A stretch of 64,000 bases of DNA from an uncultured Chthonomonadaceae bacterium (lineage in GTDB: Bacteria > Armatimonadota > Chthonomonadetes > Chthonomonadales > Chthonomonadaceae), in assembly GCA_963835065.1 (NCBI GenBank), contig CAWIEK010000045.1, positions 64,001 through 128,000 on the forward strand, read 5' to 3'. Under the pieces are notes generated by a model, which saw nothing but the letters and a program-made list of their open reading frames with translations, was not told the origin of the DNA and did not search any database. Shown here one piece after another: positions 4,985 through 59,310 of the stretch. Every line of letters starts with the position of its first letter. The first letter of the stretch is position 1. Position numbers and translations under genes: made by a program.

Positions 4985-5863
4985 ATGTTTTCAACCTTTT
5001 ACAAACGATCTGCCCGGCGAAACAAATTGTCGCTTCGCCGTTGGTTCGCGCTGCCGATGCTTGCGCTGCTGCCGTTGTCCCTCAGTTGCGCCCGCCTGCC
5101 GCCAAGCGTGAGCGGATTTACCGGTCGCCGGATTCGCGTCACCATGACGTTCAACGGCACGATGCAATCGGCCTTCTACTATTACTTTCTTATCAACCGC
5201 TATGGCCCGACAGGAACGCTGAACGCCAACGGCCCGGTTCCGGTACTCGGCACTCTGCCCGGTCAGAACGGCTCATTGGGCAACGGCTACGCAACCGGTT
5301 CTAACGCCAGCTCCACCGGCACAATCAGCGGCCTGCCGGATTATGGCATCACCGACTTTGTGCTGTTCCATTCGCCGCAGCAAAACAACATCGGCCTGTA
5401 CCACTACACCGCCGATCCGAACACGCAGCCCACGCCGCCTAACTACAGCCGGCCCTTCAATGTGGTTTTGCCGAGCAGTTCCAGCGTTGACATTGACCCT
5501 AACGCCGCGAAAACGCTTCAATTCGATCTGTATATCTCCCAGCTTGTCACCGATACAACCGATACAACGGCCCGGAACCAGGAAGCGCAAAACATTCAAT
5601 ACCTGCAAGTCAACATCGTGTCCACAAACGTCACGCCAATAACGGCAAATGAAAACGTTTTCAAGGAAGTGGACGCTTTCGGAGACACGCTGCACCCGAA
5701 CAGCCAGCAGTTCCTGACGATTGATCTCACCCAGAACAAAACTTATACGAGTACCGACAACATCTCCACGCTGCCGGAGCCAACGAATGACGTGTTTCCC
5801 GGCGGCAACAGCGAACCGTCGCTTGATCTCATCTCGTGGTCTATCCAAGTCATACCGAACTGA
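4985..5863 (+). CDS. hypothetical lipoprotein, paralog 1
   Basis: Basic N-terminus, hydrophobic stretch, lipobox-like LSLSC; colinear with downstream paralog. Confidence 0.8.
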   Translation: MFSTFYKRSARRNKLSLRRWFALPMLALLPLSLSCARLPPSVSGFTGRRIRVTMTFNGTMQSAFYYYFLINRYGPTGTLNANGPVPVLGTLPGQNGSLGNGYATGSNASSTGTISGLPDYGITDFVLFHSPQQNNIGLYHYTADPNTQPTPPNYSRPFNVVLPSSSSVDIDPNAAKTLQFDLYISQLVTDTTDTTARNQEAQNIQYLQVNIVSTNVTPITANENVFKEVDAFGDTLHPNSQQFLTIDLTQNKTYTSTDNISTLPEPTNDVFPGGNSEPSLDLISWSIQVIPN

Positions 5864-5904
5864 GTATCTCACGCCTGCCTGAACATCAGGAAAGAAAACC
5901 GTCT

Positions 5905-6780
5905 ATGTTGTCGTGGTTTCGTTTTTGGATTATTGGTTTCCATCAAATCTTCCGGCGCACAGGAATGTTGCTGCCTGTCTTTGGCTGCCTGCTGTGGTCT
6001 ATGGGATGCGCCCGCCTGCCTCCGAGCGTAAGCGGACTTTCCGGGAGGCGGATTCGGGTCAAGATGACGTTTGCCGGAACGATGCAGTCCAATTTGTACT
6101 ATTATTTCCTCATCAACAAATATGGCCCGACAGGTGAACAAAATGCTCATGGCCCGGTTCCGGTTCTCGGCCCTCTCCCTGAATTCAGCAATTCCTACGG
6201 AAATGGTTACGCTACGGGGTCCGGCCCCGGTTCTCAAGGAACAATTAACGACTTGAAGGATTACGGTATCACCGATTTTGTACTGTTCAATTCGACCGTG
6301 CCAAAACCGAACAACATTGGCCTATACCACTACACAACAGACCCCAATACACAACAATACCCCTTATTCCCTTCTCAGCCCATCAATATCATAACGCCTA
6401 ATTTTTCAGACACCGATGCTTATGCGTCTCGAACGCTGCAATTCGATTTGTACATCTCGCAACTTGTCACCGACACCAACGATCAGACAGCGAAAAATCA
6501 GGAAGCGCAAACTATTCGTTGGCTGCAAGTCAACATCGTTTCCACGAATGTGACTCCGATCACTCAAGAAAACGTTGTCAAATATGTAGATGCTTTTGGC
6601 GACACGCGCGACACTTCCAACCTGCATTTCCTGACGATAGACCTGACACAAAACACAACCTACTCCGATTCAGACAACATCTCCAATCTGCAAGAGCCAA
6701 CGGGTGACGTGTACCCTGTTGGCAGCAATCAACCGTCACTGGATCTCGTCTCATGGTCTATTCAGGTGATTCCGAACTAA
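5905..6780 (+). CDS. hypothetical lipoprotein, paralog 2
   Basis: WSMGC-ARLPPSVSG lipobox-like; shares TLQFDLYISQLVTDT, LQVNIVSTNVTPIT and SWSIQVIPN with paralog 1. Confidence 0.8.
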   Translation: MLSWFRFWIIGFHQIFRRTGMLLPVFGCLLWSMGCARLPPSVSGLSGRRIRVKMTFAGTMQSNLYYYFLINKYGPTGEQNAHGPVPVLGPLPEFSNSYGNGYATGSGPGSQGTINDLKDYGITDFVLFNSTVPKPNNIGLYHYTTDPNTQQYPLFPSQPINIITPNFSDTDAYASRTLQFDLYISQLVTDTNDQTAKNQEAQTIRWLQVNIVSTNVTPITQENVVKYVDAFGDTRDTSNLHFLTIDLTQNTTYSDSDNISNLQEPTGDVYPVGSNQPSLDLVSWSIQVIPN

Positions 6781-6839
6781 ACAAGGGGTTCACAAATCTT
6801 GAAGTATTCGACCCAGTGGGAAGTCCTGCAAAAGTTGGG

Positions 6840-7095
6840 AAAAGGATATGTAGAGTCATCGTCGAAATCTTGGCAATGCAGCGCTTCCAGCCCGATGTCT
6901 CGTTGTGTCAAGTTGTAGGAGAGAGGCGTCGTGACCTCAGCAGCATCAGGGCGAACGGGAGGGGTGAAACATAGGACTGGCACCTCCCTTCCTGTATCTA
7001 ACATTTGAATACTAGACCTTATTCTACTGTTTAGACGGTTGTGATGGGCAAAGGGTTCAATTTTTCGCATTGTTTTGCTCTTTTTTCTGTTTCTT
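6840..7095 (-). ncRNA. three-copy conserved intergenic unit, candidate ncRNA, copy 1
   Basis: ~150 nt core nearly identical to 32904-33142 and 55667-55933; minus-strand promoter-like motif, SD + 8-codon ORF (6946-6972), terminal T-tract; the repeat is certain, RNA function is inferred. Confidence 0.5.
7034..7059 (-). promoter_or_regulatory. ECF sigma-type promoter TGAACC-N16-CGTC
   Basis: Equivalent motifs with identical 16 nt spacing in copy 2 (GAAACC-N16-TGTC, 33084-33109) and copy 3 (TGAACC-N16-TGTC, 55867-55892) although spacers diverge. Confidence 0.55.
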
Positions 7096-7104
7096 TGATG
7101 TTAC

Positions 7105-11819: not shown

Positions 11820-11966
11820 TTGTCTTGAACCATGATTTTTCATGATTAGGATGATTATCATGATTGGCTGGTCTTCATCATGTTAATCAGTCTGATCATG
11901 AAAAATCTGGTTGGCGGTCTTCATCATGTTAATCACTCTAATCATGAAAAATCATGGTTCAGACAA
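11820..11966. repeat. palindromic element built from ~9-mer units, copy 1
   Basis: Ends TTGTCTTGAACCATGATT...AATCATGGTTCAGACAA; related copy at 15651-15813. Confidence 0.85.
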
Positions 11967-15445: not shown

Positions 15446-15650
15446 GTCAATTACCTCACAGCGCGAACGAATTCCGCGCCAATACCATTTTCAAGAGAAC
15501 GAGCTTATATCCGGTTGGAAGAAAATGCAGATATACAAGCAAATTCGTCCTTTAAGCGCGAATATCCTGCTTCATTTCATTCAAGAGGTCAAAAATATTA
15601 TTCCCGTGAAGGCTTAATTCAACGGCTTCGCGGACAGGTCTGCGGCGTTT

Positions 15651-15813
15651 TTGTCTTGAACCATGATTTATGTGATTAGGATGATTACCATGATGAACGC
15701 CCCTGCTCAATCCCGCTAATCTTAAAAATCATGAAAATCACAGTTCATCCAATGCAAGGCGCCTTCTCAATCATGATAATCATAATAATCACATAAATCA
15801 TGGTTCAAGACAA
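15651..15813. repeat. palindromic element built from ~9-mer units, copy 2
   Basis: 28 bp perfect terminal inverted repeat TTGTCTTGAACCATGATTTATGTGATTA. Confidence 0.88.
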
Positions 15814-15996
15814 AGTAAACGAGCAACATCATCTAGCATACGCCGATTATGCTCCGTCTGGTTCCATCAAAATCACTGTCCTGAACTCTAAACCTGAAAA
15901 ACTCCGGCAGGAATCTGCGCAGGCGAAACACTGTCAGGTATTCAGGCAGGATTTTAGAACAAAGATGCGGCAATGATGGTTCAGGAGGCGCTTTAT

Positions 15997-27479: not shown

Positions 27480-28892
27480 ATGCGCGTCTTAACAAATAGA
27501 ATGACGAACACAAGCGCACAAAATGAGAAGGCCTGTCAGGAGATTATCCTGGTACGCCGCGCCCAAACCGGCGATAGAGCCGCCTTTGACCGGTTGGCAC
27601 AACATTATCGCCCGCTGTTGTTCGCCCTGGCTTTCCTGCGAACCGGCCACAAGGAAGAGGCCGAAGACCTGGTGCAGGAAGCGCTGACAAAGGCATGGCT
27701 GAAACTGCCCACGCTTACGGATACGGCCCTGTTCCTGCCCTGGCTGAAATCCGTGACGGCCAATGCCTGCATCAGTTGGTATCGTCGCGTGGATAAATTT
27801 CCTCGTTCCCTGGAAGAAGACACGAAGGACACGTTACGAGCAAACAAAGGACTCCCCTTAGAAACGCTTCTGGAACGCGAAAGGCAATGGCGGTTGCAGC
27901 AAGCGTTATGGACGCTGCCGGAAGTCAATCGCCTCGCCTTAGTGATGCGTGTCTGGAAGGGAGCTTCCTACGAGGATATTGCCGCCTTTACGGGAGTTCC
28001 GGCTTCGACCGTAGATGGCCGCATTTATCGCGCAAAGCGACAGTTGCGCCGCCTGCTGCATGATGCCGGAGCTGAGTTTTTCGGGGAAGAACCTCGCCCC
28101 CGGCAGCCAAAGTCACATTTGAATGAATTTTCCCCACAACGGAGCAGCAAAATGACCATTCCAGAAACAACTGCCACTATTCCCCATTGGGAACAAGCCC
28201 TGGCGCTTACCTTGTTCACCCGTCGTTTCTCACTGATGCTGAATGCGGGCGTTACCCTCTCGCGGACGCTGGAACTTCTACAGGATATACCGGCTCCCTA
28301 CGGAGCAGCGGCTCGCGCATTGCGCACACAAGTGGAGGATGGAGCCTGTTTATCGCGGGTAATGTCGGAGCGCCCGGACCTGTTTTCTCAAATCTACATT
28401 GGCATGGTCCGGGCGGGCGAAGTAGGAGGCGTATTGGAAGAAACCGCGCAGAGGCTAAAGAAAGCATTGGCAAGAGAGTGGCATCTTGCCAGCCGACTCC
28501 CGCCTCAGGAAATATCGCTCTTTCTGTTGCTTCCCGCCGACAGGCCTTTGTCCGAGAAGTGGGATTCTATGTCTGCCTATCAACAAACGATGACCTTCAG
28601 CCTCTTCTTCGAGACTTTCGGAACACTGCTTCAGTCGGGCGTTCCAATTCTTCAGGCAATGGAAACTGTCGCCGAACTGTTGCCCCTAAACTCGCGCGAA
28701 GGCTGGATGCAGGCCCGTGAACAAGTAACAACAGGGTTGCCATTTGTGCCGACAATGGCGCGAATGGGTATTTTTCCGACATTCGCGCTGGAAATGCTTC
28801 GGGTAGGCGAGGAATGTGGTTCGCTGGACGCAATGCTGCATAGTTTGGCGGAAGCGTTCGAGGATGACCTGGAATATCAACTACTGCCATAG
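27480..28892 (+). CDS. ECF sigma factor in frame with two T2SS-F/PilC cytoplasmic domains
   Basis: Sigma2 (AEDLVQEA..KAW, F.PWL) and sigma4 (SYEDIA...VP.STV.GRIYRAK); then FTRRFSLMLNAGV..VRAGEVGGVLEE and FGTLLQSGVPILQAM..VGEECGSLDAML. Confidence 0.8.
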   Translation: MRVLTNRMTNTSAQNEKACQEIILVRRAQTGDRAAFDRLAQHYRPLLFALAFLRTGHKEEAEDLVQEALTKAWLKLPTLTDTALFLPWLKSVTANACISWYRRVDKFPRSLEEDTKDTLRANKGLPLETLLERERQWRLQQALWTLPEVNRLALVMRVWKGASYEDIAAFTGVPASTVDGRIYRAKRQLRRLLHDAGAEFFGEEPRPRQPKSHLNEFSPQRSSKMTIPETTATIPHWEQALALTLFTRRFSLMLNAGVTLSRTLELLQDIPAPYGAAARALRTQVEDGACLSRVMSERPDLFSQIYIGMVRAGEVGGVLEETAQRLKKALAREWHLASRLPPQEISLFLLLPADRPLSEKWDSMSAYQQTMTFSLFFETFGTLLQSGVPILQAMETVAELLPLNSREGWMQAREQVTTGLPFVPTMARMGIFPTFALEMLRVGEECGSLDAMLHSLAEAFEDDLEYQLLP

Positions 28893-32903: not shown

Positions 32904-33142
32904 AAAAAAAGGATATGTAGAGGCAGCGTCGAAATCTTGGCAATACAGCGCTTCCAGCCCGATGTCTCGTTGTGTCAGGTTGTAGGAGAGAGGCGTCGTG
33001 ACCTCGTAAGCGTCAGGGCGGATGGGAGGAGTGGAACATGGATGTGTGCCTCCTTCCTATATAGTAGACGTTTGTACTTTATAGACAGGTTGCGTGGGGC
33101 AAAGGTTTCTCTTTTTTCGCGTTGTGCGGCTCTTTTTTTTAT
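32904..33142 (-). ncRNA. three-copy conserved intergenic unit, candidate ncRNA, copy 2
   Basis: Same core as 6840-7095; GAAACC-N16-TGTC; AGGAGG + MFHSSHPP* (33013-33039); 7-T tract. Confidence 0.5.
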
Positions 33143-33176
33143 ACTTTTTGCTGGATTGTTGCTGTTGGGGGCTTCT

Positions 33177-36788: not shown

Positions 36789-36806
36789 GGGGTCTCCGGG
36801 GCGTTA

Positions 36807-36897
36807 GAGCCTATCCCAATAGGCCGGATATTGAAAATACCCGGCAGGAAAGTGCAAGCGTCTTTCAGACGCGAATTCGCGCCTATTGGATAGGCTC
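36807..36897. mobile_element. 91 bp MITE (IS5/IS1031-like ends) with TTA target duplication
   Basis: TTA-GAGCCTATCC...GGATAGGCTC-TTA; near-identical copy at 59031-59122. Confidence 0.9.
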
Positions 36898-46381: not shown

Positions 46382-47395
46382 ATGGCCGATACCACCATGG
46401 AACGACCTGCGGAAAACAGCTCTTACCGCGATGAGCTGGCAGGGTTGTACCGCCTGATGCTTCTCATACGCCGCCTGGAAGAATCCGTCTACCGCAAATT
46501 CCATGAAGCGAAAATCGGCGGCTATCTGCACCGCTACGATGGCATGGAGGCGCTGGTTGTCGGCGTTATCCCGCAACTTCAGCTTCCCGGTGATTATGTA
46601 CTCTGCACCTACCGCGACCATGCCCACGCGCTTGCCTGCGGGACGTCGGCCCGCGCGGTCATGGCCGAACTGATGGGACGCGCTACGGGCTGCGCCCTGG
46701 GCAAGGGTGGCTCCATGCACCTGACCGACCCTGAGCGCGGCTTTCTGGGCGGCGACGGTATTGTCGGCGGCCCGGTTCCCATTTCGCTCGGCGTTGGCTT
46801 CGCGTTGAAATACCGTAATACCAACAACATCTGCGTCTGCTACTTCGGCGACGGCGCGATGAATCAGGGCGGCGTTCACGAATCGCTGAACATGGTCGGC
46901 TTGTACAAACTGCCCGTTCTCTATATTCTGGAAAACAACCGCTACGCGATGGGCACGTCTGTCGAGCGTTCCACCAGCCAGCCCGATTTCGTGCTGAAGG
47001 CCAAAGCGCACGGGATCGCCGGCGAACAGGTGAATGGCATGGACTTGCTGACAATGCGGGACGCGGCCAAACGCGCGATTGAGCGCATCCGCGACACCGG
47101 CGAAGCCTACTTCCTGCAAGTGGATTGCGAGCGCTTCGTCGGACACGGCATCGGCGACGACAACACCAAAGCGTGGCAAACCTACCGCACTCAGGAGCAG
47201 CTTGACGAGATCAAGAATACGCGCGACCCCCTCAAAAACCTGCAGGACATGCTTCTCGCGGACGGCTACCTGACCATGCAGGACGTGGACAAGTTCGAGC
47301 AGGAAGTCCACGCGGAAGTGGAAGACGCCGTAGCCTTCGCCGAAGCCAGCCCCGAACCGCCGCTGGACAGTTTGTATGAGAATGTATTTTCGTAG
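46382..47395 (+). CDS. pdhA: pyruvate dehydrogenase E1 alpha
   Basis: TYRDH, GKGGSMH, TPP motif GDGAMNQG..ENN. Confidence 0.93.
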   Translation: MADTTMERPAENSSYRDELAGLYRLMLLIRRLEESVYRKFHEAKIGGYLHRYDGMEALVVGVIPQLQLPGDYVLCTYRDHAHALACGTSARAVMAELMGRATGCALGKGGSMHLTDPERGFLGGDGIVGGPVPISLGVGFALKYRNTNNICVCYFGDGAMNQGGVHESLNMVGLYKLPVLYILENNRYAMGTSVERSTSQPDFVLKAKAHGIAGEQVNGMDLLTMRDAAKRAIERIRDTGEAYFLQVDCERFVGHGIGDDNTKAWQTYRTQEQLDEIKNTRDPLKNLQDMLLADGYLTMQDVDKFEQEVHAEVEDAVAFAEASPEPPLDSLYENVFS

Positions 47396-47514
47396 GTAGA
47401 CGGTAGACGGTAGACGGTAGACGGTAACACGTCTGCCGCTCGCCGACTACGCAAATGCAGCAAGCCCAACTTGTAAGACGGCTACCGTATTCCGTCTACC
47501 GTCTACCGTCTACC
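47395..47514. repeat. inverted pair of heptamer arrays (GGTAGAC)x4 / (GTCTACC)x3
   Basis: 47395-47426 and 47483-47514, between pdhA and pdhB. Confidence 0.92.
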
Positions 47515-47528
47515 TTTTGGAGACTTGA

Positions 47529-48512: not shown

Positions 48513-48639
48513 GAGGGAAAAGGGAAAAGGGAAAAGGGAAAAGCAAACGTGTTGCTAGTGACTGCGGCCATTCCTTGCACATTATAAGCCGACTTTCGCG
48601 CTGCACTACTTTTCCCTTTTCCCTTTTCCCTTTTCCCTT
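48513..48639. repeat. inverted pair of heptamer arrays (AGGGAAA)x4 / (TTTCCCT)x4
   Basis: 48513-48543 and 48610-48639, between pdhB and pdhC. Confidence 0.92.
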
Positions 48640-51605: not shown

Positions 51606-51619
51606 TGCAATCTCCTGAG

Positions 51620-51724
51620 TAGGCATTAGGCATTAGGCATTAGGCATTAGTGGAGGCTTCCATACACGTTCATCGCGCAAAAGGGAATAGGGAGTGTTTC
51701 TAATGCCTAATGCCTAATGCCTAC
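51620..51724. repeat. inverted pair of heptamer arrays (TAGGCAT)x4 / (ATGCCTA)x3
   Basis: 51620-51650 and 51700-51724. Confidence 0.92.
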
Positions 51725-51727
51725 TAT

Positions 51728-52840
51728 CTACAAGCGCGGCGTTCGGGACAGCCAGCGCACTTCGCCGCGCATACGGGCGGTGAGCCAGTTGGGGTCTGCG
51801 CCGAAGCCGGTCAGCAGGGCGGCTCCCAAGCCAGCGAGGGCAAGCGCGAATTCCAGCAGCAGGCCGACGATGCCCAAACCCTGATTGATTTTGCCCAACA
51901 CGACGTTTGCCACAAAGAACGCGCCCAGGCCTAATCCAATCTGTATTCCCATACCGAGGCTGCCGCCGCGTCCGAGTCGTCGCGCCATACGTTGCCCGAT
52001 ACTGCGCATCCCGCATATCCAGCCGAACGCCATTGCGCCCAAACATAAGCCCGCAAAGCCCGCCGCAAAAGGCAGCCAGATAAAGTGAAACGGCGAGCGC
52101 AGCAGGCCGGAATTGAACCAGAGGGCAATCAGCATTGCGCCTGCGCCCAACACGCCGACAACAAGGCAGCGTCCGGGTTCCCGCGTCAAATTTTCCCCTG
52201 TGCGCTCCGTAGCGTGGGGCGCGACAATCAAGGCCAGCAGTCCTGCCAGACCGCCGAGCAGCATCAAAGCGAATTGCCCGCCCGCCCAATCGTCTTTAGG
52301 CTTGCTATGCGGCGCGGGGGAAACATGGAGTTGGACTGTTGGCGTTCGCGTTGGCGCGGTTACGGGTGGCACAGCAGGTTCGCTGACGACGGAATAGGTT
52401 TCCACATCGGACAACAAATCTACGCTTTGCTGCGTGTAGCGAACCCGTCCCTGATTTTCATCTATCACGTCACCGCCGATAGCGGTCAACACATTGCCCA
52501 CGCTTGCGCCCGGTTTGATGATGACATGGCAGTTGAGAGTCAGAACGTCACTAGTCACATGCCCAGACAAAATCAGCGTTTTATCGCGTACTACCAGGTA
52601 AGGCAGGGTTTGGTCGGCAGCCAGTTCATAGGGCCGTCTCCAGCCTTTTTCATGGCGCGCGTTGGGATCAACCGGCACGGGACGCAATTTCTGTTCCGTC
52701 GGATGGGCGTTGGGATGCCATGCCTGCTCCACCGGGGGCGGCGAAGCCTGTTGGTTGTCCGCCTGCTGCGCGCCCGCCGAATAAAGATTGGCGGTCAGCA
52801 GAGAAACCAGCGCCATCAGAGCCGTAATCAGTCGGTGCAT
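51728..52840 (-). CDS. membrane protein with bactofilin-like exported segment and C-terminal TM bundle
   Basis: Signal peptide, GHV..DV / GNV..IGGDV repeats, ~5 TMs. Confidence 0.65.
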   Translation of the reverse strand: MHRLITALMALVSLLTANLYSAGAQQADNQQASPPPVEQAWHPNAHPTEQKLRPVPVDPNARHEKGWRRPYELAADQTLPYLVVRDKTLILSGHVTSDVLTLNCHVIIKPGASVGNVLTAIGGDVIDENQGRVRYTQQSVDLLSDVETYSVVSEPAVPPVTAPTRTPTVQLHVSPAPHSKPKDDWAGGQFALMLLGGLAGLLALIVAPHATERTGENLTREPGRCLVVGVLGAGAMLIALWFNSGLLRSPFHFIWLPFAAGFAGLCLGAMAFGWICGMRSIGQRMARRLGRGGSLGMGIQIGLGLGAFFVANVVLGKINQGLGIVGLLLEFALALAGLGAALLTGFGADPNWLTARMRGEVRWLSRTPRL

Positions 52841-52859: not shown

Positions 52860-52980
52860 GCTGGTGGTAAGTGACTGGTGATCGGTGGTTGGTGTCTGGT
52901 TGTAAAGCGTGTTGCAAACATTTTACAGCCAACGTACAAAGCCATTTTTACCAGTCACCAACCACCGATCACCAGATCAC
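52860..52980. repeat. degenerate inverted heptamer arrays
   Basis: tggtgatcggtggttggtg at ~52877 vs caccaaccaccgatcacca at ~52957. Confidence 0.75.
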
Positions 52981-55666: not shown

Positions 55667-55933
55667 AAAAAAGAGTATGTAGAGTCATCGTCGAAATCTT
55701 GGCAATACAGCGCTTCCAGCCCGATGTCTCGTTGTGTCAGGTTGTAGGAGAGAGGCATCGTGACCTCGTAAGCGTCAGGGCGAACGGGAGAGGTGAAACA
55801 TAGGCTCTGCACCTCCCTTCTTGTATGGGTTGTACTTATCTTTATAGTAGACGTTTGTACTATTTGGACAGGCTGAACGGGTAAAAGGTTCACCTTTTTT
55901 CGCGTGGTTTGGCTCTTTTTTCTGTCTTTTTTA
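55667..55933 (-). ncRNA. three-copy conserved intergenic unit, candidate ncRNA, copy 3
   Basis: Same core; TGAACC-N16-TGTC; GGGAGG + MFHLSRSP* (55775-55801); T-tract. Confidence 0.5.
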
Positions 55934-56069
55934 TCACTCTCCTTAAGAACGTGCTTGGCCCTCCATTCCTCGGAGTGGGTTTGAGCAGAGCAACAAAGGT
56001 ATAAATGCCCCGGAAATGTATTTTGTCTCTGGCAGCAGGATTTTGGCCGGCGGCGGCGAATGGAAAGAT

Positions 56070-56883: not shown

Positions 56884-57315
56884 ATGGAGACGAAACCGGG
56901 CAAGCGGATTGTAAGCAAGAGGGCGTATGTGAAGGCGCAGGGGCAGAAAGTAGGAGCCTCTACATTCGGGTTGCTGTTGCTTTTCGTTGGGTTCATAGGC
57001 TTGCTGACGATAGGGATTGTGTTGCCTTCAACGACCAGCGTTTTAGCCGGTCTACTGGTTTTCGGGGGTGTTGGTGGCGCATCGCTGTATCTGGGCTATT
57101 TAGGCGGGCGAACTATGAAAGAGGCTAGGCAGATAGACCCAGGCGTTCCCCTTACTCGTGCCAACACTGCCGACCTACCAGCCCCCGACAGTCTGGTACG
57201 CGCTTCTTCGGAGCCAATGCAGGCACAAGAGACTGTGTTACTCAGAGCGGCAGAAGCAGGGCAGGAGAGGCACAAGGAGCAGTTGTTAAGGGCAGTGACA
57301 GGAAATGATGATTAG
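56884..57315 (+). CDS. two-TM hypothetical protein with C-terminal LVRA/LLRA x3 motif
   Basis: GGAGG SD; ADLPAPDSLVRASSEPMQAQETVLLRAA..EQLLRA. Confidence 0.78.
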   Translation: METKPGKRIVSKRAYVKAQGQKVGASTFGLLLLFVGFIGLLTIGIVLPSTTSVLAGLLVFGGVGGASLYLGYLGGRTMKEARQIDPGVPLTRANTADLPAPDSLVRASSEPMQAQETVLLRAAEAGQERHKEQLLRAVTGNDD

Positions 57316-57327
57316 GAGGTTTCGGGA

Positions 57328-57810
57328 ATGAAGCAGAAGCCGGGCGAGTTGAGGGTGAGTAAAATACCGAGTCGCAACCCCACGACACCAGTACATCGAG
57401 AGACACAGAAAATGGGCACGGCGCTCTCTGCTGCTGTTCGCCAGTGGGTGGGAGTGGTAAGCATCTGCCTCTGTCTATGGGCTTGTATGTCTCCGTTATT
57501 CTATGAGCAATTCTATCGCACGGCGGCAGGAAAAGGCAATTTCATCAATTGGCTGTTTTGGCTCGCCTGCATCCTCGGTTTCCTGCTGTTATTTTCGGTA
57601 TCCGCAACCCGTCAGGTTATTGTAGAAACGCGAAAGCAGTATTTCCCTCCCACTAATACCAACAACGCCGACCTGCCCGCGCATCAAACTCTGGTACGCG
57701 CTTCTTCGGAGCCGTTGCAGGCACAGGAGGCCGTGTTACTGAGAGCCGCTGCAGAGGGGATTGAGACGCCGCCAGAGGAATTGATGCGGGCGTCTGTGGG
57801 GCAGGAGTGA
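57328..57810 (+). CDS. two-TM hypothetical protein with C-terminal LVRA/LLRA x3 motif
   Basis: AGGAGG SD; ADLPAHQTLVRASSEPLQAQEAVLLRAA..EELMRA. Confidence 0.78.
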   Translation: MKQKPGELRVSKIPSRNPTTPVHRETQKMGTALSAAVRQWVGVVSICLCLWACMSPLFYEQFYRTAAGKGNFINWLFWLACILGFLLLFSVSATRQVIVETRKQYFPPTNTNNADLPAHQTLVRASSEPLQAQEAVLLRAAAEGIETPPEELMRASVGQE

Positions 57811-58606: not shown

Positions 58607-59310
58607 GTGTTACCTGCTCCTCTCCTATGGAAGCCAACATCGTTTCAGGAATTCATTGAAAATTTTGGAACGAGTACCGGCGCGGCACACGTTACAACGG
58701 ATGCTGGCCCGGCCTACTTGAAAGCAATGGGCAATCCAATAGGGCCTCATACCCTTGCTTCAGAATGGGTAGGAACACAGCTTGCTCGCCTGTTCAAGTT
58801 GCAAACATTTGATGCAGCCCTGCTCGTTATTGATTCGACAACCGATGAAATACCCTTTCCAAAAGGCGGATTCGCGCAGTCAGGGCCAGCCTTCTGCACA
58901 CGAGCCGAGGCAGGGCGGCCTTGGAGTGGTTCGACGCAAGACTTGGATAAACTCGACAACTTACAGGATGTTACCCGGTTTCCTGAATTCAAGAGGTTTC
59001 TGCGGCGAGATGTGCTGCTCATCTGTCTAAGAACCTATCCCAGTAGGCCGGGTATTGAAAATACCCGGCAGGAAAGTGCAAGCGTCTTTCAGACGCGAAT
59101 TCGCGCCTATCGGGATAGGCTCTAAGTGACTTACGGAATGTAAAGATCGAACACATCAAGCCGATTGTTGCGTCTATTCCTCAGCAGTGGGAAGTTGATA
59201 GGGATGTAAGAGAAGCGCTCGTTGAATTCATAGTTGGCAGAGCGCGCTACCTTGCCGATAATATGCTGAACATTACCGAACGCGACTACGGAACCTTGTT
59301 TCAACTTTAA
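58607..59310 (+). pseudogene. HipA-like kinase interrupted by a MITE and apparently lacking its catalytic core
   Basis: AYLKAMGNP.GPH.LASEWVG..LA N-lobe; removing MITE plus one TAA restores the frame to SDLRNVK..IPQQW..RARYL..LFQL*; no N.DR or IDH motifs present. Confidence 0.8.
59031..59122. mobile_element. 92 bp MITE with TAA target duplication
   Basis: TAA-GAACCTATCCC...GGGATAGGCTC-TAA; near-identical to 36807-36897. Confidence 0.92.

Follow-up and report, generated by a model that had tools for sequence, protein, structure and literature searches.

The stretch of DNA analysed here, called the window, covers 64,000 nt of an uncultured Chthonomonadaceae bacterium (contig CAWIEK010000045.1, positions 64,001 to 128,000). 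It belongs to an 8.0 Mb draft genome of 57% GC and 92% completeness (G000), which was compared with two genomes of the same genus (G001 and G002). Three copies of one intergenic unit lie in the window, all on the minus strand. Each has A-tracts, a promoter-like block of the form GAA(C/A)C-N16/17-YGTC, a GGAGG Shine-Dalgarno (SD) sequence, an 8-codon frame ending in TGA, a near-invariant core and a T-run, and in all these points the first-pass annotation, which had described them at these positions, is confirmed. The copies and their parts are:

6840-7099, minus strand: copy 1, whole unit from the A-tracts to the T-run (from sequence reading and repeat families)
7030-7058, minus strand: copy 1, promoter motif, presumably of ECF type (-35 GAACCC at 7058-7053, -10 CGTCTAAA at 7037-7030)
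6981-6990, minus strand: copy 1, SD sequence AAGGGAGGTG
6946-6972, minus strand: copy 1, micro-ORF MFHPSRSP-stop
6923-6938, minus strand: copy 1, predicted hairpin P1 (GAGGU/GCCUC), beginning 10 nt past the first base of the stop codon
6847-6901, minus strand: copy 1, predicted 3' domain with P2 (GAGAC.../...CUC), P3 (UGGAA/UUUCG) and the conserved end ACAUA
6885-6871, minus strand: copy 1, invariant apical AGCGCUGYAUUGCCA, inside the 3' domain
6785-6823, minus strand: behind copy 1, what may be the decayed right end of an ISAzo13-MITE (recognised only by eye; the end profile gave no score)
32904-33151, minus strand: copy 2, whole unit (promoter motif 33109-33080, SD 33055-33048)
33013-33039, minus strand: copy 2, micro-ORF MFHSSHPP-stop
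32914-33005, minus strand: copy 2, predicted RNA core (P1 33005-32990, 3' domain 32968-32914)
33158-33170, minus strand: upstream-motif remnant CCAACAGCAAC at copy 2, common to many copies including those with an ISAzo13 shell
55667-55934, minus strand: copy 3, whole unit (promoter motif 55891-55863, SD core 55816-55811)
55775-55801, minus strand: copy 3, micro-ORF MFHLSRSP-stop
55676-55767, minus strand: copy 3, predicted RNA core (P1 55767-55752, 3' domain 55730-55676)

Copy 1 has a second GTCTA at 7017-7013, and for its SD the 3' end of the 16S rRNA of G000 reads GATCACCTCCTT. As had been reported, convergent ORFs flank copies 1 and 2; those on either side of copy 3 are divergent.

The unit had been taken for a three-copy element. 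A profile built from the three window cores detected 162 copies in G000, every match spanning the whole profile, and the suggested search for further copies succeeded in the relatives as well. A covariance model (R2) found 13 copies in G001. In G002 it gave 49 matches, of which 46 were strong, two weak and one a truncated copy, that is about 48 copies. Outside the genus, BLAST detected homologues in 0 of 28 and 0 of 65 other genomes, and an earlier model (R1) in 0 of 39 genomes of the family. R2 gave weak matches of 22-23 bits in one of 36 relatives and one of 150 genomes of the phylum; these were rejected as homologues: one is a plain hairpin behind a gene, another resembles it, the remaining one matches only in part, and no SD-ORF was seen in the two that were inspected. 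A pattern scan of GTDB gave at least 31 loci; among the matches listed, 24 came from Chthonomonadaceae MAGs and 7 from other taxa, and the latter were discarded, the covariance model not matching them. The same fate befell two matches in a metagenome pattern scan, neither of which the covariance model matched. A pattern scan of viral contigs gave 0 matches, and phages and plasmids contained no match to the unit. Within the Armatimonadota genomes searched, the family is confined to one genus, none having been found elsewhere. The first-pass annotation had been unable to assign the unit to a known RNA family, and in agreement with this the Rfam check gave nothing for it at gathering score or at E up to 10; in the window only two tRNAs exceeded the gathering threshold, and the best E value around copy 1 was 0.98. 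No description of the element was found in the literature accessible without a journal subscription.

The conserved unit consists of the SD, an 8-11-codon frame ending in Pro-stop, a variable 7-nt linker and the core. In G000 the micro-ORF starts with ATG in 160 of the 162 copies and with ATT in two, and the start is in frame with the stop in 157/162 despite a length range of 8 to 11 codons. The stop is TGA in 156 copies and TAA in 6, and the codon before it specifies Pro in all 162 (as CCC, CCT or CCG). In the relatives, Pro precedes the stop at 29/30 G002 and 7/7 G001 loci while TAA, TGA and TAG stops are all found, TAA at 17/30 and 5/7 loci respectively; some of these micro-ORFs begin with GTG, CTG or TTG, and their length reaches 15-16 codons in G001. 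Among the 157 in-frame copies the last three residues are RSP (115), RPP (27), HPP (6), LPP (5) or RAP (4). As a background, among the ordinary genes (6599 calls from a simple gene caller) Pro is the last residue of 8.2%, and RxP forms the C-terminus of 0.6%. The N-terminus of the peptide is not conserved. Broken copies were also encountered: five of the 162 are out of frame, one G002 copy is 5'-truncated and one in G001 (L015) has an early stop. The swaps among stop, Pro and start codons, together with indels in multiples of three, lead us to read the micro-ORF as translated. The micro-ORF is C-rich and pairs with its own SD, so that some of the Pro codons may be retained for pairing. Sequestration of the SD by the ORF, as had been proposed, was recovered in the calculation (pairing 0.93), but it mostly reflects composition, the value still being 0.90 with the ORF shuffled (53 copies).

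Several other readings of this frame were rejected. In bacterial SECIS elements the hairpin lies some 10-11 nt beyond a stop codon in the A site; here the stop is often TAA or TAG, so the unit is not selenocysteine recoding, and further stops and indels follow downstream. A +1 frameshift at CCC-UGA was discarded on the occurrence of TAA, TAG, CCG and CCA variants, and coding in other frames of the core on stops, indels and mostly non-synonymous changes. The defining feature of type I toxin-antitoxin systems is a hydrophobic toxin peptide of 20-50 residues, whereas the peptide here has only 8-11 residues and is rich in Pro, Ser and Arg. The lambda bar and CreT minigene RNAs act through an SD, a start, a few codons and a hairpin; unlike them, the unit has no conserved rare-codon pair and no adjoining gene family common to the copies. 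Leader-peptide attenuators (trp, tna) carry a promoter, a micro-ORF, hairpins and a U-run in this order, and the unit has the same order of parts. In contrast to attenuators, no intrinsic terminator was found at copy 1 and most copies have no co-oriented downstream gene, and the attenuator-like alternative 2:3 pairing was only 62% paired with no covariation.

The end of the peptide resembles that of termination-arrest peptides. According to the accessible part of PMC10987492, NSP-stop and NAP-stop peptides stall the ribosome with the stop codon in the A site, and RAPP-like motifs within ordinary proteins mostly cause no stall; in view of the latter, we infer rather than observe stalling at the Pro-stop of this unit. 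As far as the accessible parts of PMC10987492 (NSP-stop, NAP-stop, RAPP-like) and PMC11890864 (PepNL, TnaC) go, the likeness lies in a short ORF, an R-x-P-stop or x-P-P-stop end and a strong SD. Compared with the peptides described in those parts, the present ones have 8-11 codons (G000), no N-terminal localization signal and no regulated gene downstream, and a structured RNA follows the stop, in 162 copies.

The core is predicted to fold as an RNA with two hairpin domains. The distance from the stop to P1 is 10 nt in 157/162 copies and 9-12 nt in all, although 34 different 7-nt linkers occur, and 46 of the 92 core columns are invariant across all 162 copies. The fold proposed in the first-pass annotation (GCCC/GGGC, GAGACATC with GAYGCCTC, and TGAC/RTCA) did not survive comparison of 35 copies from the three genomes: 69% of its cells were paired and its covariation was no higher than that of shuffles. 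The alternative P1/P2/P3 fold had 91% of its cells paired in a MAFFT alignment that was not fitted to the fold (35 copies, three genomes), with 25 cells changed on both sides against 10.6 in shuffled alignments (0/500 reached this value). Covariation among further copies, named beforehand as the check, is thus passed by the new fold and failed by the original one. This signal is carried by five pairs only, a pair count that 281 of 500 shuffles reach, and comes mostly from one divergent subgroup in which related sequences share changes; among 47 closer copies no covariation was found. In the divergent G001 and G002 copies, P1 changes from GAGGY/GCCUC to GUGGU/GCCAC and UCGGC/GCCGA, and P2 from GAGAC/GUCUC to GAGAA/UUCUC and GAGGC/GCCUC. 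P2 is often mispaired in G000, and the stability of the core is ordinary (25 copies, MFE z close to 0 for either strand). The apical 15-mer of the 3' domain is invariant in the 35-copy alignment. Outside the copies, allowing up to 1 mismatch on either strand, it occurs at only 5 scattered sites, and the complementarity of the core to the rRNA region or to mRNA was nothing above chance.

The strict pattern GAA(C/A)C-N14-19-GTCTA was present upstream of 142/162 copies in G000, and most of the other 20 are near variants. A similar motif upstream of ordinary genes lends weak support to promoter function (16 intergenic sites versus 9 for the reversed control). In some G002 copies the promoter-like block is of another kind, and the motif is missing from five G001 copies. 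Since this block varies across the genus, the constant unit is SD-ORF-linker-core, and the ECF-type promoter claimed earlier holds as a motif in the window but not as a constant part of the family. The core sequence was found in assembled contigs of six of seven soil or biocrust RNA runs, each under its own study, and run X4 gave no cover of the core. These contigs show few differences, contain micro-ORFs of the same type where they reach that far, and cover the core of copy 2 in four runs; two of them extend 100 nt or more into the flanks. As the runs were found using this stretch, the contigs give no start, strand or level and some reach into the flanks, the evidence for transcription is weak.

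In 101/161 copies the next gene downstream is encoded on the other strand (simple gene caller), which bears out the earlier view that the unit is not a 5' UTR or leader. The neighbouring genes are diverse, with no shared family. In tandem gaps, 64 of 88 copies face against their neighbours, and the same-strand fraction of coding sequence is 0.37 within the first 2 kb downstream of copies. Taken with the conservation of frame and stop and the compensatory pairs, the 101/161 count leads us to read the unit as a stand-alone RNA of the minus strand. In this respect the original description, a stand-alone RNA unit with a translated micro-ORF, is upheld, while its fold, its low copy number and its absent mobile ends are not. 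Co-orientation with replication was seen for 73 of 144 copies in G000, which gives no general link, and in G001 the skew across 20 windows gave no clear replication direction. On the largest contig (C49) the strand of the copies switches from plus to mostly minus near the flip in GC skew, and elsewhere one copy faces the 3' end of dnaA (C68:39039-39344). No copy lies beside any of the 4 reverse transcriptase (RT) genes of the three genomes, and no model hit fell in the 4 RT loci or in 2 ISAs1 loci, which speaks against a retron, a group II intron or another enzyme-linked ncRNA. Two of the RT loci are of separate interest: at L221 a 476-aa RT gene, presumably retron-like, stands beside a second ORF that we take to be SWIM/BRCT-like, and at L218 an RT gene stands beside an ORF that we take to be Cas1-like, in both cases with no copy nearby.

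The absence of TIRs or TSDs reported for the unit is true of the three window copies, which have no scored end, and does not extend to the family. Both ISAs1-type ends flank 14 of the 162 copies and at least one end is found at 26. These are 19-bp inverted repeats, mostly about 460 bp apart, and 8 of the 14 two-ended copies show a 10-bp duplication with 9 or 10 matches. The parent IS is a 1271-bp ISAs1 element in G002 (L051; NF033564, E=1.6e-120), the first 21 nt of which are identical to the MITE end and the interior of which has no similarity to the cassette beyond the TIR; no ISAs1 transposase was found in the 92% complete G000. The same ends are found at L051, L072 and L075, on the full ISAs1 element, on a deletion derivative of 140 bp and on a MITE of 82 bp, and they carry several unrelated cargos. 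A second shell derives from an ISAzo13 element of G000 (NF033519) and its 78-bp MITE: remnants of this MITE lie beside 52/162 copies, on both sides in 10, compared with 0 in shuffles and 2 of 500 random gaps. ISAzo13 elements of 1361 bp are present at C41:162053-163413 and C53:451924-453284, and MITEs of 78-90 bp with their ends carry REP-like hairpins. In total, 76 copies have a shell, 21 only the upstream cargo motif and 65 neither. In 15 copies with the ISAs1-type shell, divergence was 0.10 for the core and 0.075 for SD and ORF, compared with 0.18 for the TIR and 0.22 for the cargo. The cassette is best read as having spread partly as MITE cargo.

Comparison of insertion sites indicated both retention and turnover. 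Of 35 G002 loci with an orthologous flanking gene, 12 are matched in G000 by a copy of identical side and strand (chance expectation 1.5% for each gene side); the other 23 testable sites have no copy in G000, and G001 shared 1 of 10. Unshared orthologous sites are gains or losses, for example L041. At the 13 shared sites the G000 copy is a close relative in only 4 (ranks 2, 3, 9 and 12 of 162), and 110/136 pairs of variable columns show all four gametes. Together, the distant kinship at shared sites and the four-gamete pairs indicate that copies exchange sequence, and gene conversion among such mosaic copies could keep them intact without selection on each. Genes that flank many G002 copies map apart in G000 (L018, L030, L038, L040), the copies often marking synteny breaks. 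At one site where G002 has a copy, G000 has a 134-aa ORF flanked by long hairpin repeats (C49:487331-487735), presumably DUF559-like; ORFs of this type also occur just upstream of copies in G001 and G002 (L003, L043). In the accessible parts of PMC5896051 and PMC10969869, the QMITE1 and QMITE2 elements of Coxiella are described as intergenic and of high copy number; they have TIRs and direct repeats and yield sRNAs. Within those parts, such MITE-borne sRNAs resemble the present family in copy number, spread and positions partly conserved between genomes. They differ from it in that here the cargo is conserved rather than the ends, with two unrelated IS shells or none, and in that a constant distance separates a conserved micro-ORF, read as translated, from a covarying core, while the copies are under-dispersed in a polar manner.

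In G000 only 4 of 105 gaps between neighbouring copies were below 10 kb, one of them a local duplication, whereas 22-23 were expected from intergenic sites and the minimum in 3000 draws was 9. The median gap was 21 kb for facing copies (n=27), 36 kb for tandem (n=58) and 47 kb for back-to-back copies (n=20), with a permutation P of 0.00065 in a test made post hoc on a draft genome; the polarity held in contigs above and below 200 kb (P=0.008 and 0.02). To a rough approximation the three medians add up, as they would if a copy kept others away over about 10 kb ahead of it and about 24 kb behind. In G002, 0 of 36 gaps were below 13 kb against 3.4 expected (P=0.025, the extent of one contig being approximated), and polarity leaned the same way without being significant (n=10 and 10, P=0.14). 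A control MITE of 144 sites was random or slightly clustered (29 gaps versus 19 expected under 10 kb) and was not excluded near copies. This control repeat has inverted ends and about 145 genome sites, among them 36806-36889 and 59030-59113 in the window and one just upstream of copy 1. Shell ends were not excluded near copies either, with small numbers (6 vs 7.8 and 3 vs 3.1 expected). Since all three orientation classes are depleted below 10 kb, deletion between direct repeats is not enough as an explanation. Neighbouring copies were no more alike than random pairs, on which ground local hopping was rejected.

We tentatively favour, at somewhat less than an even chance, the reading that the unit is an undescribed small-RNA gene, whose transcript is loaded with a ribosome that pauses at the Pro-stop before the folded core and which likely acts locally. 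An ECF stress-sigma promoter would probably drive the transcript, the strong SD would load a ribosome, and the 8-11 codons would likely be translated. The ribosome would then pause at the Pro-stop, right before the two hairpin domains; with the stop in the A site, ribosome geometry would bring P1, which starts 10 nt from the stop's first base, to the mRNA entry channel and leave the 3' domain free. The active form would likely be this ribosome-RNA complex rather than the peptide, and the invariant apical loop would bind a partner, for which rRNA, mRNA and genome sites gave no candidate. Each copy would serve its own neighbourhood of 10-25 kb, and a second copy nearby would not be kept. An extended version, which we regard as rather doubtful, makes of the unit a new class of RNA gene, a ribosome-parking RNA needed once per 10-25 kb and acting in cis with direction, its copies being delivered by capturing IS ends and kept only outside the territory of other copies. 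To our knowledge, multicopy regulatory RNAs in bacteria usually number a handful of copies. The unit stands out in that its 162 copies are full-length, its translation signal is conserved, its fold covaries, and its spacing depends on direction but not on transposon ends. If true, this would point to a so far unknown connection of local chromosome organisation with the pausing of ribosomes on a small RNA, or to a new kind of insertion immunity.

The spacing could also arise from a target-immunity-like insertion process acting on a selfish cassette, whose promoter, micro-ORF and fold would help only the element itself to be copied or to survive, for instance through protection of an RNA intermediate. 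We hold this to be doubtful as well, although the very uneven copy number (162, about 48 and 13), the 23 of 35 testable G002 sites empty in G000 and the real 10-bp duplications at ISAs1-type ends speak for it. According to the accessible part of PMC7350765, Mu, Tn7 and Tn3 exclude a second copy over about 5-25 kb, and Mu cis-immunity, strongest at about 5 kb, decays over a similar range of 5-25 kb; in contrast, the exclusion described here tracks the cassette and its orientation and not transposon ends. A selfish cassette would also have to account for its presence in two unrelated shells, the 65/162 copies with no trace of shell or cargo, the lack of similarity to the ISAs1 interior and the shell ends that are not excluded near copies (small numbers). 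No RT gene adjoins a copy, and neighbours are not more alike than random.

The polar spacing also speaks for an element acting on transcription in cis, the RNA or its transcription altering the neighbouring 10-25 kb through antisense read-through, put-like antitermination or a supercoiling or roadblock boundary, with the micro-ORF as the coupling to translation. The orientation bias against the adjoining gene (0.37 same-strand in the first 2 kb; 64/88) and the lack of an intrinsic terminator at copy 1 agree with this, and the layout recalls put RNA, in which two hairpin domains are followed by a U-run. Read-through, however, would not predict that the exclusion reaches further behind the promoter than ahead of it. 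Strand and replication direction are not generally linked (73/144), and the residual skew profile around copies has mixed signs; we find this reading unlikely. The view closest to that of the first-pass annotation, in which the gene of a conventional trans-acting stress sRNA or of a signalling peptide was multiplied for the sake of dosage, fits the ECF-type motif of 142/162 copies by the strict pattern, the invariant unpaired loop and the contigs of six of seven RNA runs. It appears quite improbable, given that the invariant 15-mer has only 5 scattered sites elsewhere, that the rRNA region gave no significant match, that the N-terminus of the peptide is not conserved, and that dosage leaves the spacing unexplained, an ordinary sRNA accounting for neither 162 copies nor polarity. 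Finally, a non-functional MITE family kept uniform by gene conversion would fit the TIRs and TSDs of a subfamily, the strong mosaicism and the weak folding energy, but is made very improbable by the swaps among stop, Pro and start codons, the indels in multiples of three, the compensatory pairs, the invariant columns interleaved with hypervariable ones and the faster decay of TIRs than of the core.

Further features of the window were recorded. A 470-aa ORF at 27480-28892 on the plus strand combines sigma-70 regions 2 and 4 with T2SSF (type II secretion protein F) domains, and is either an atypical fusion or two genes read as one. Two tandem pairs of paralogous ORFs, about 73% alike in DNA and with no Pfam match, lie at 4985-6780 and 57154-57791. 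Hairpins built of 7-nt or 9-nt tandem repeats are found between genes at 11826-11961, 15650-15814, 47394-47515, 48514-48638, 51618-51731 and 52875-52975, and single arms of such hairpins are also present inside the 5' spacer of many copies.
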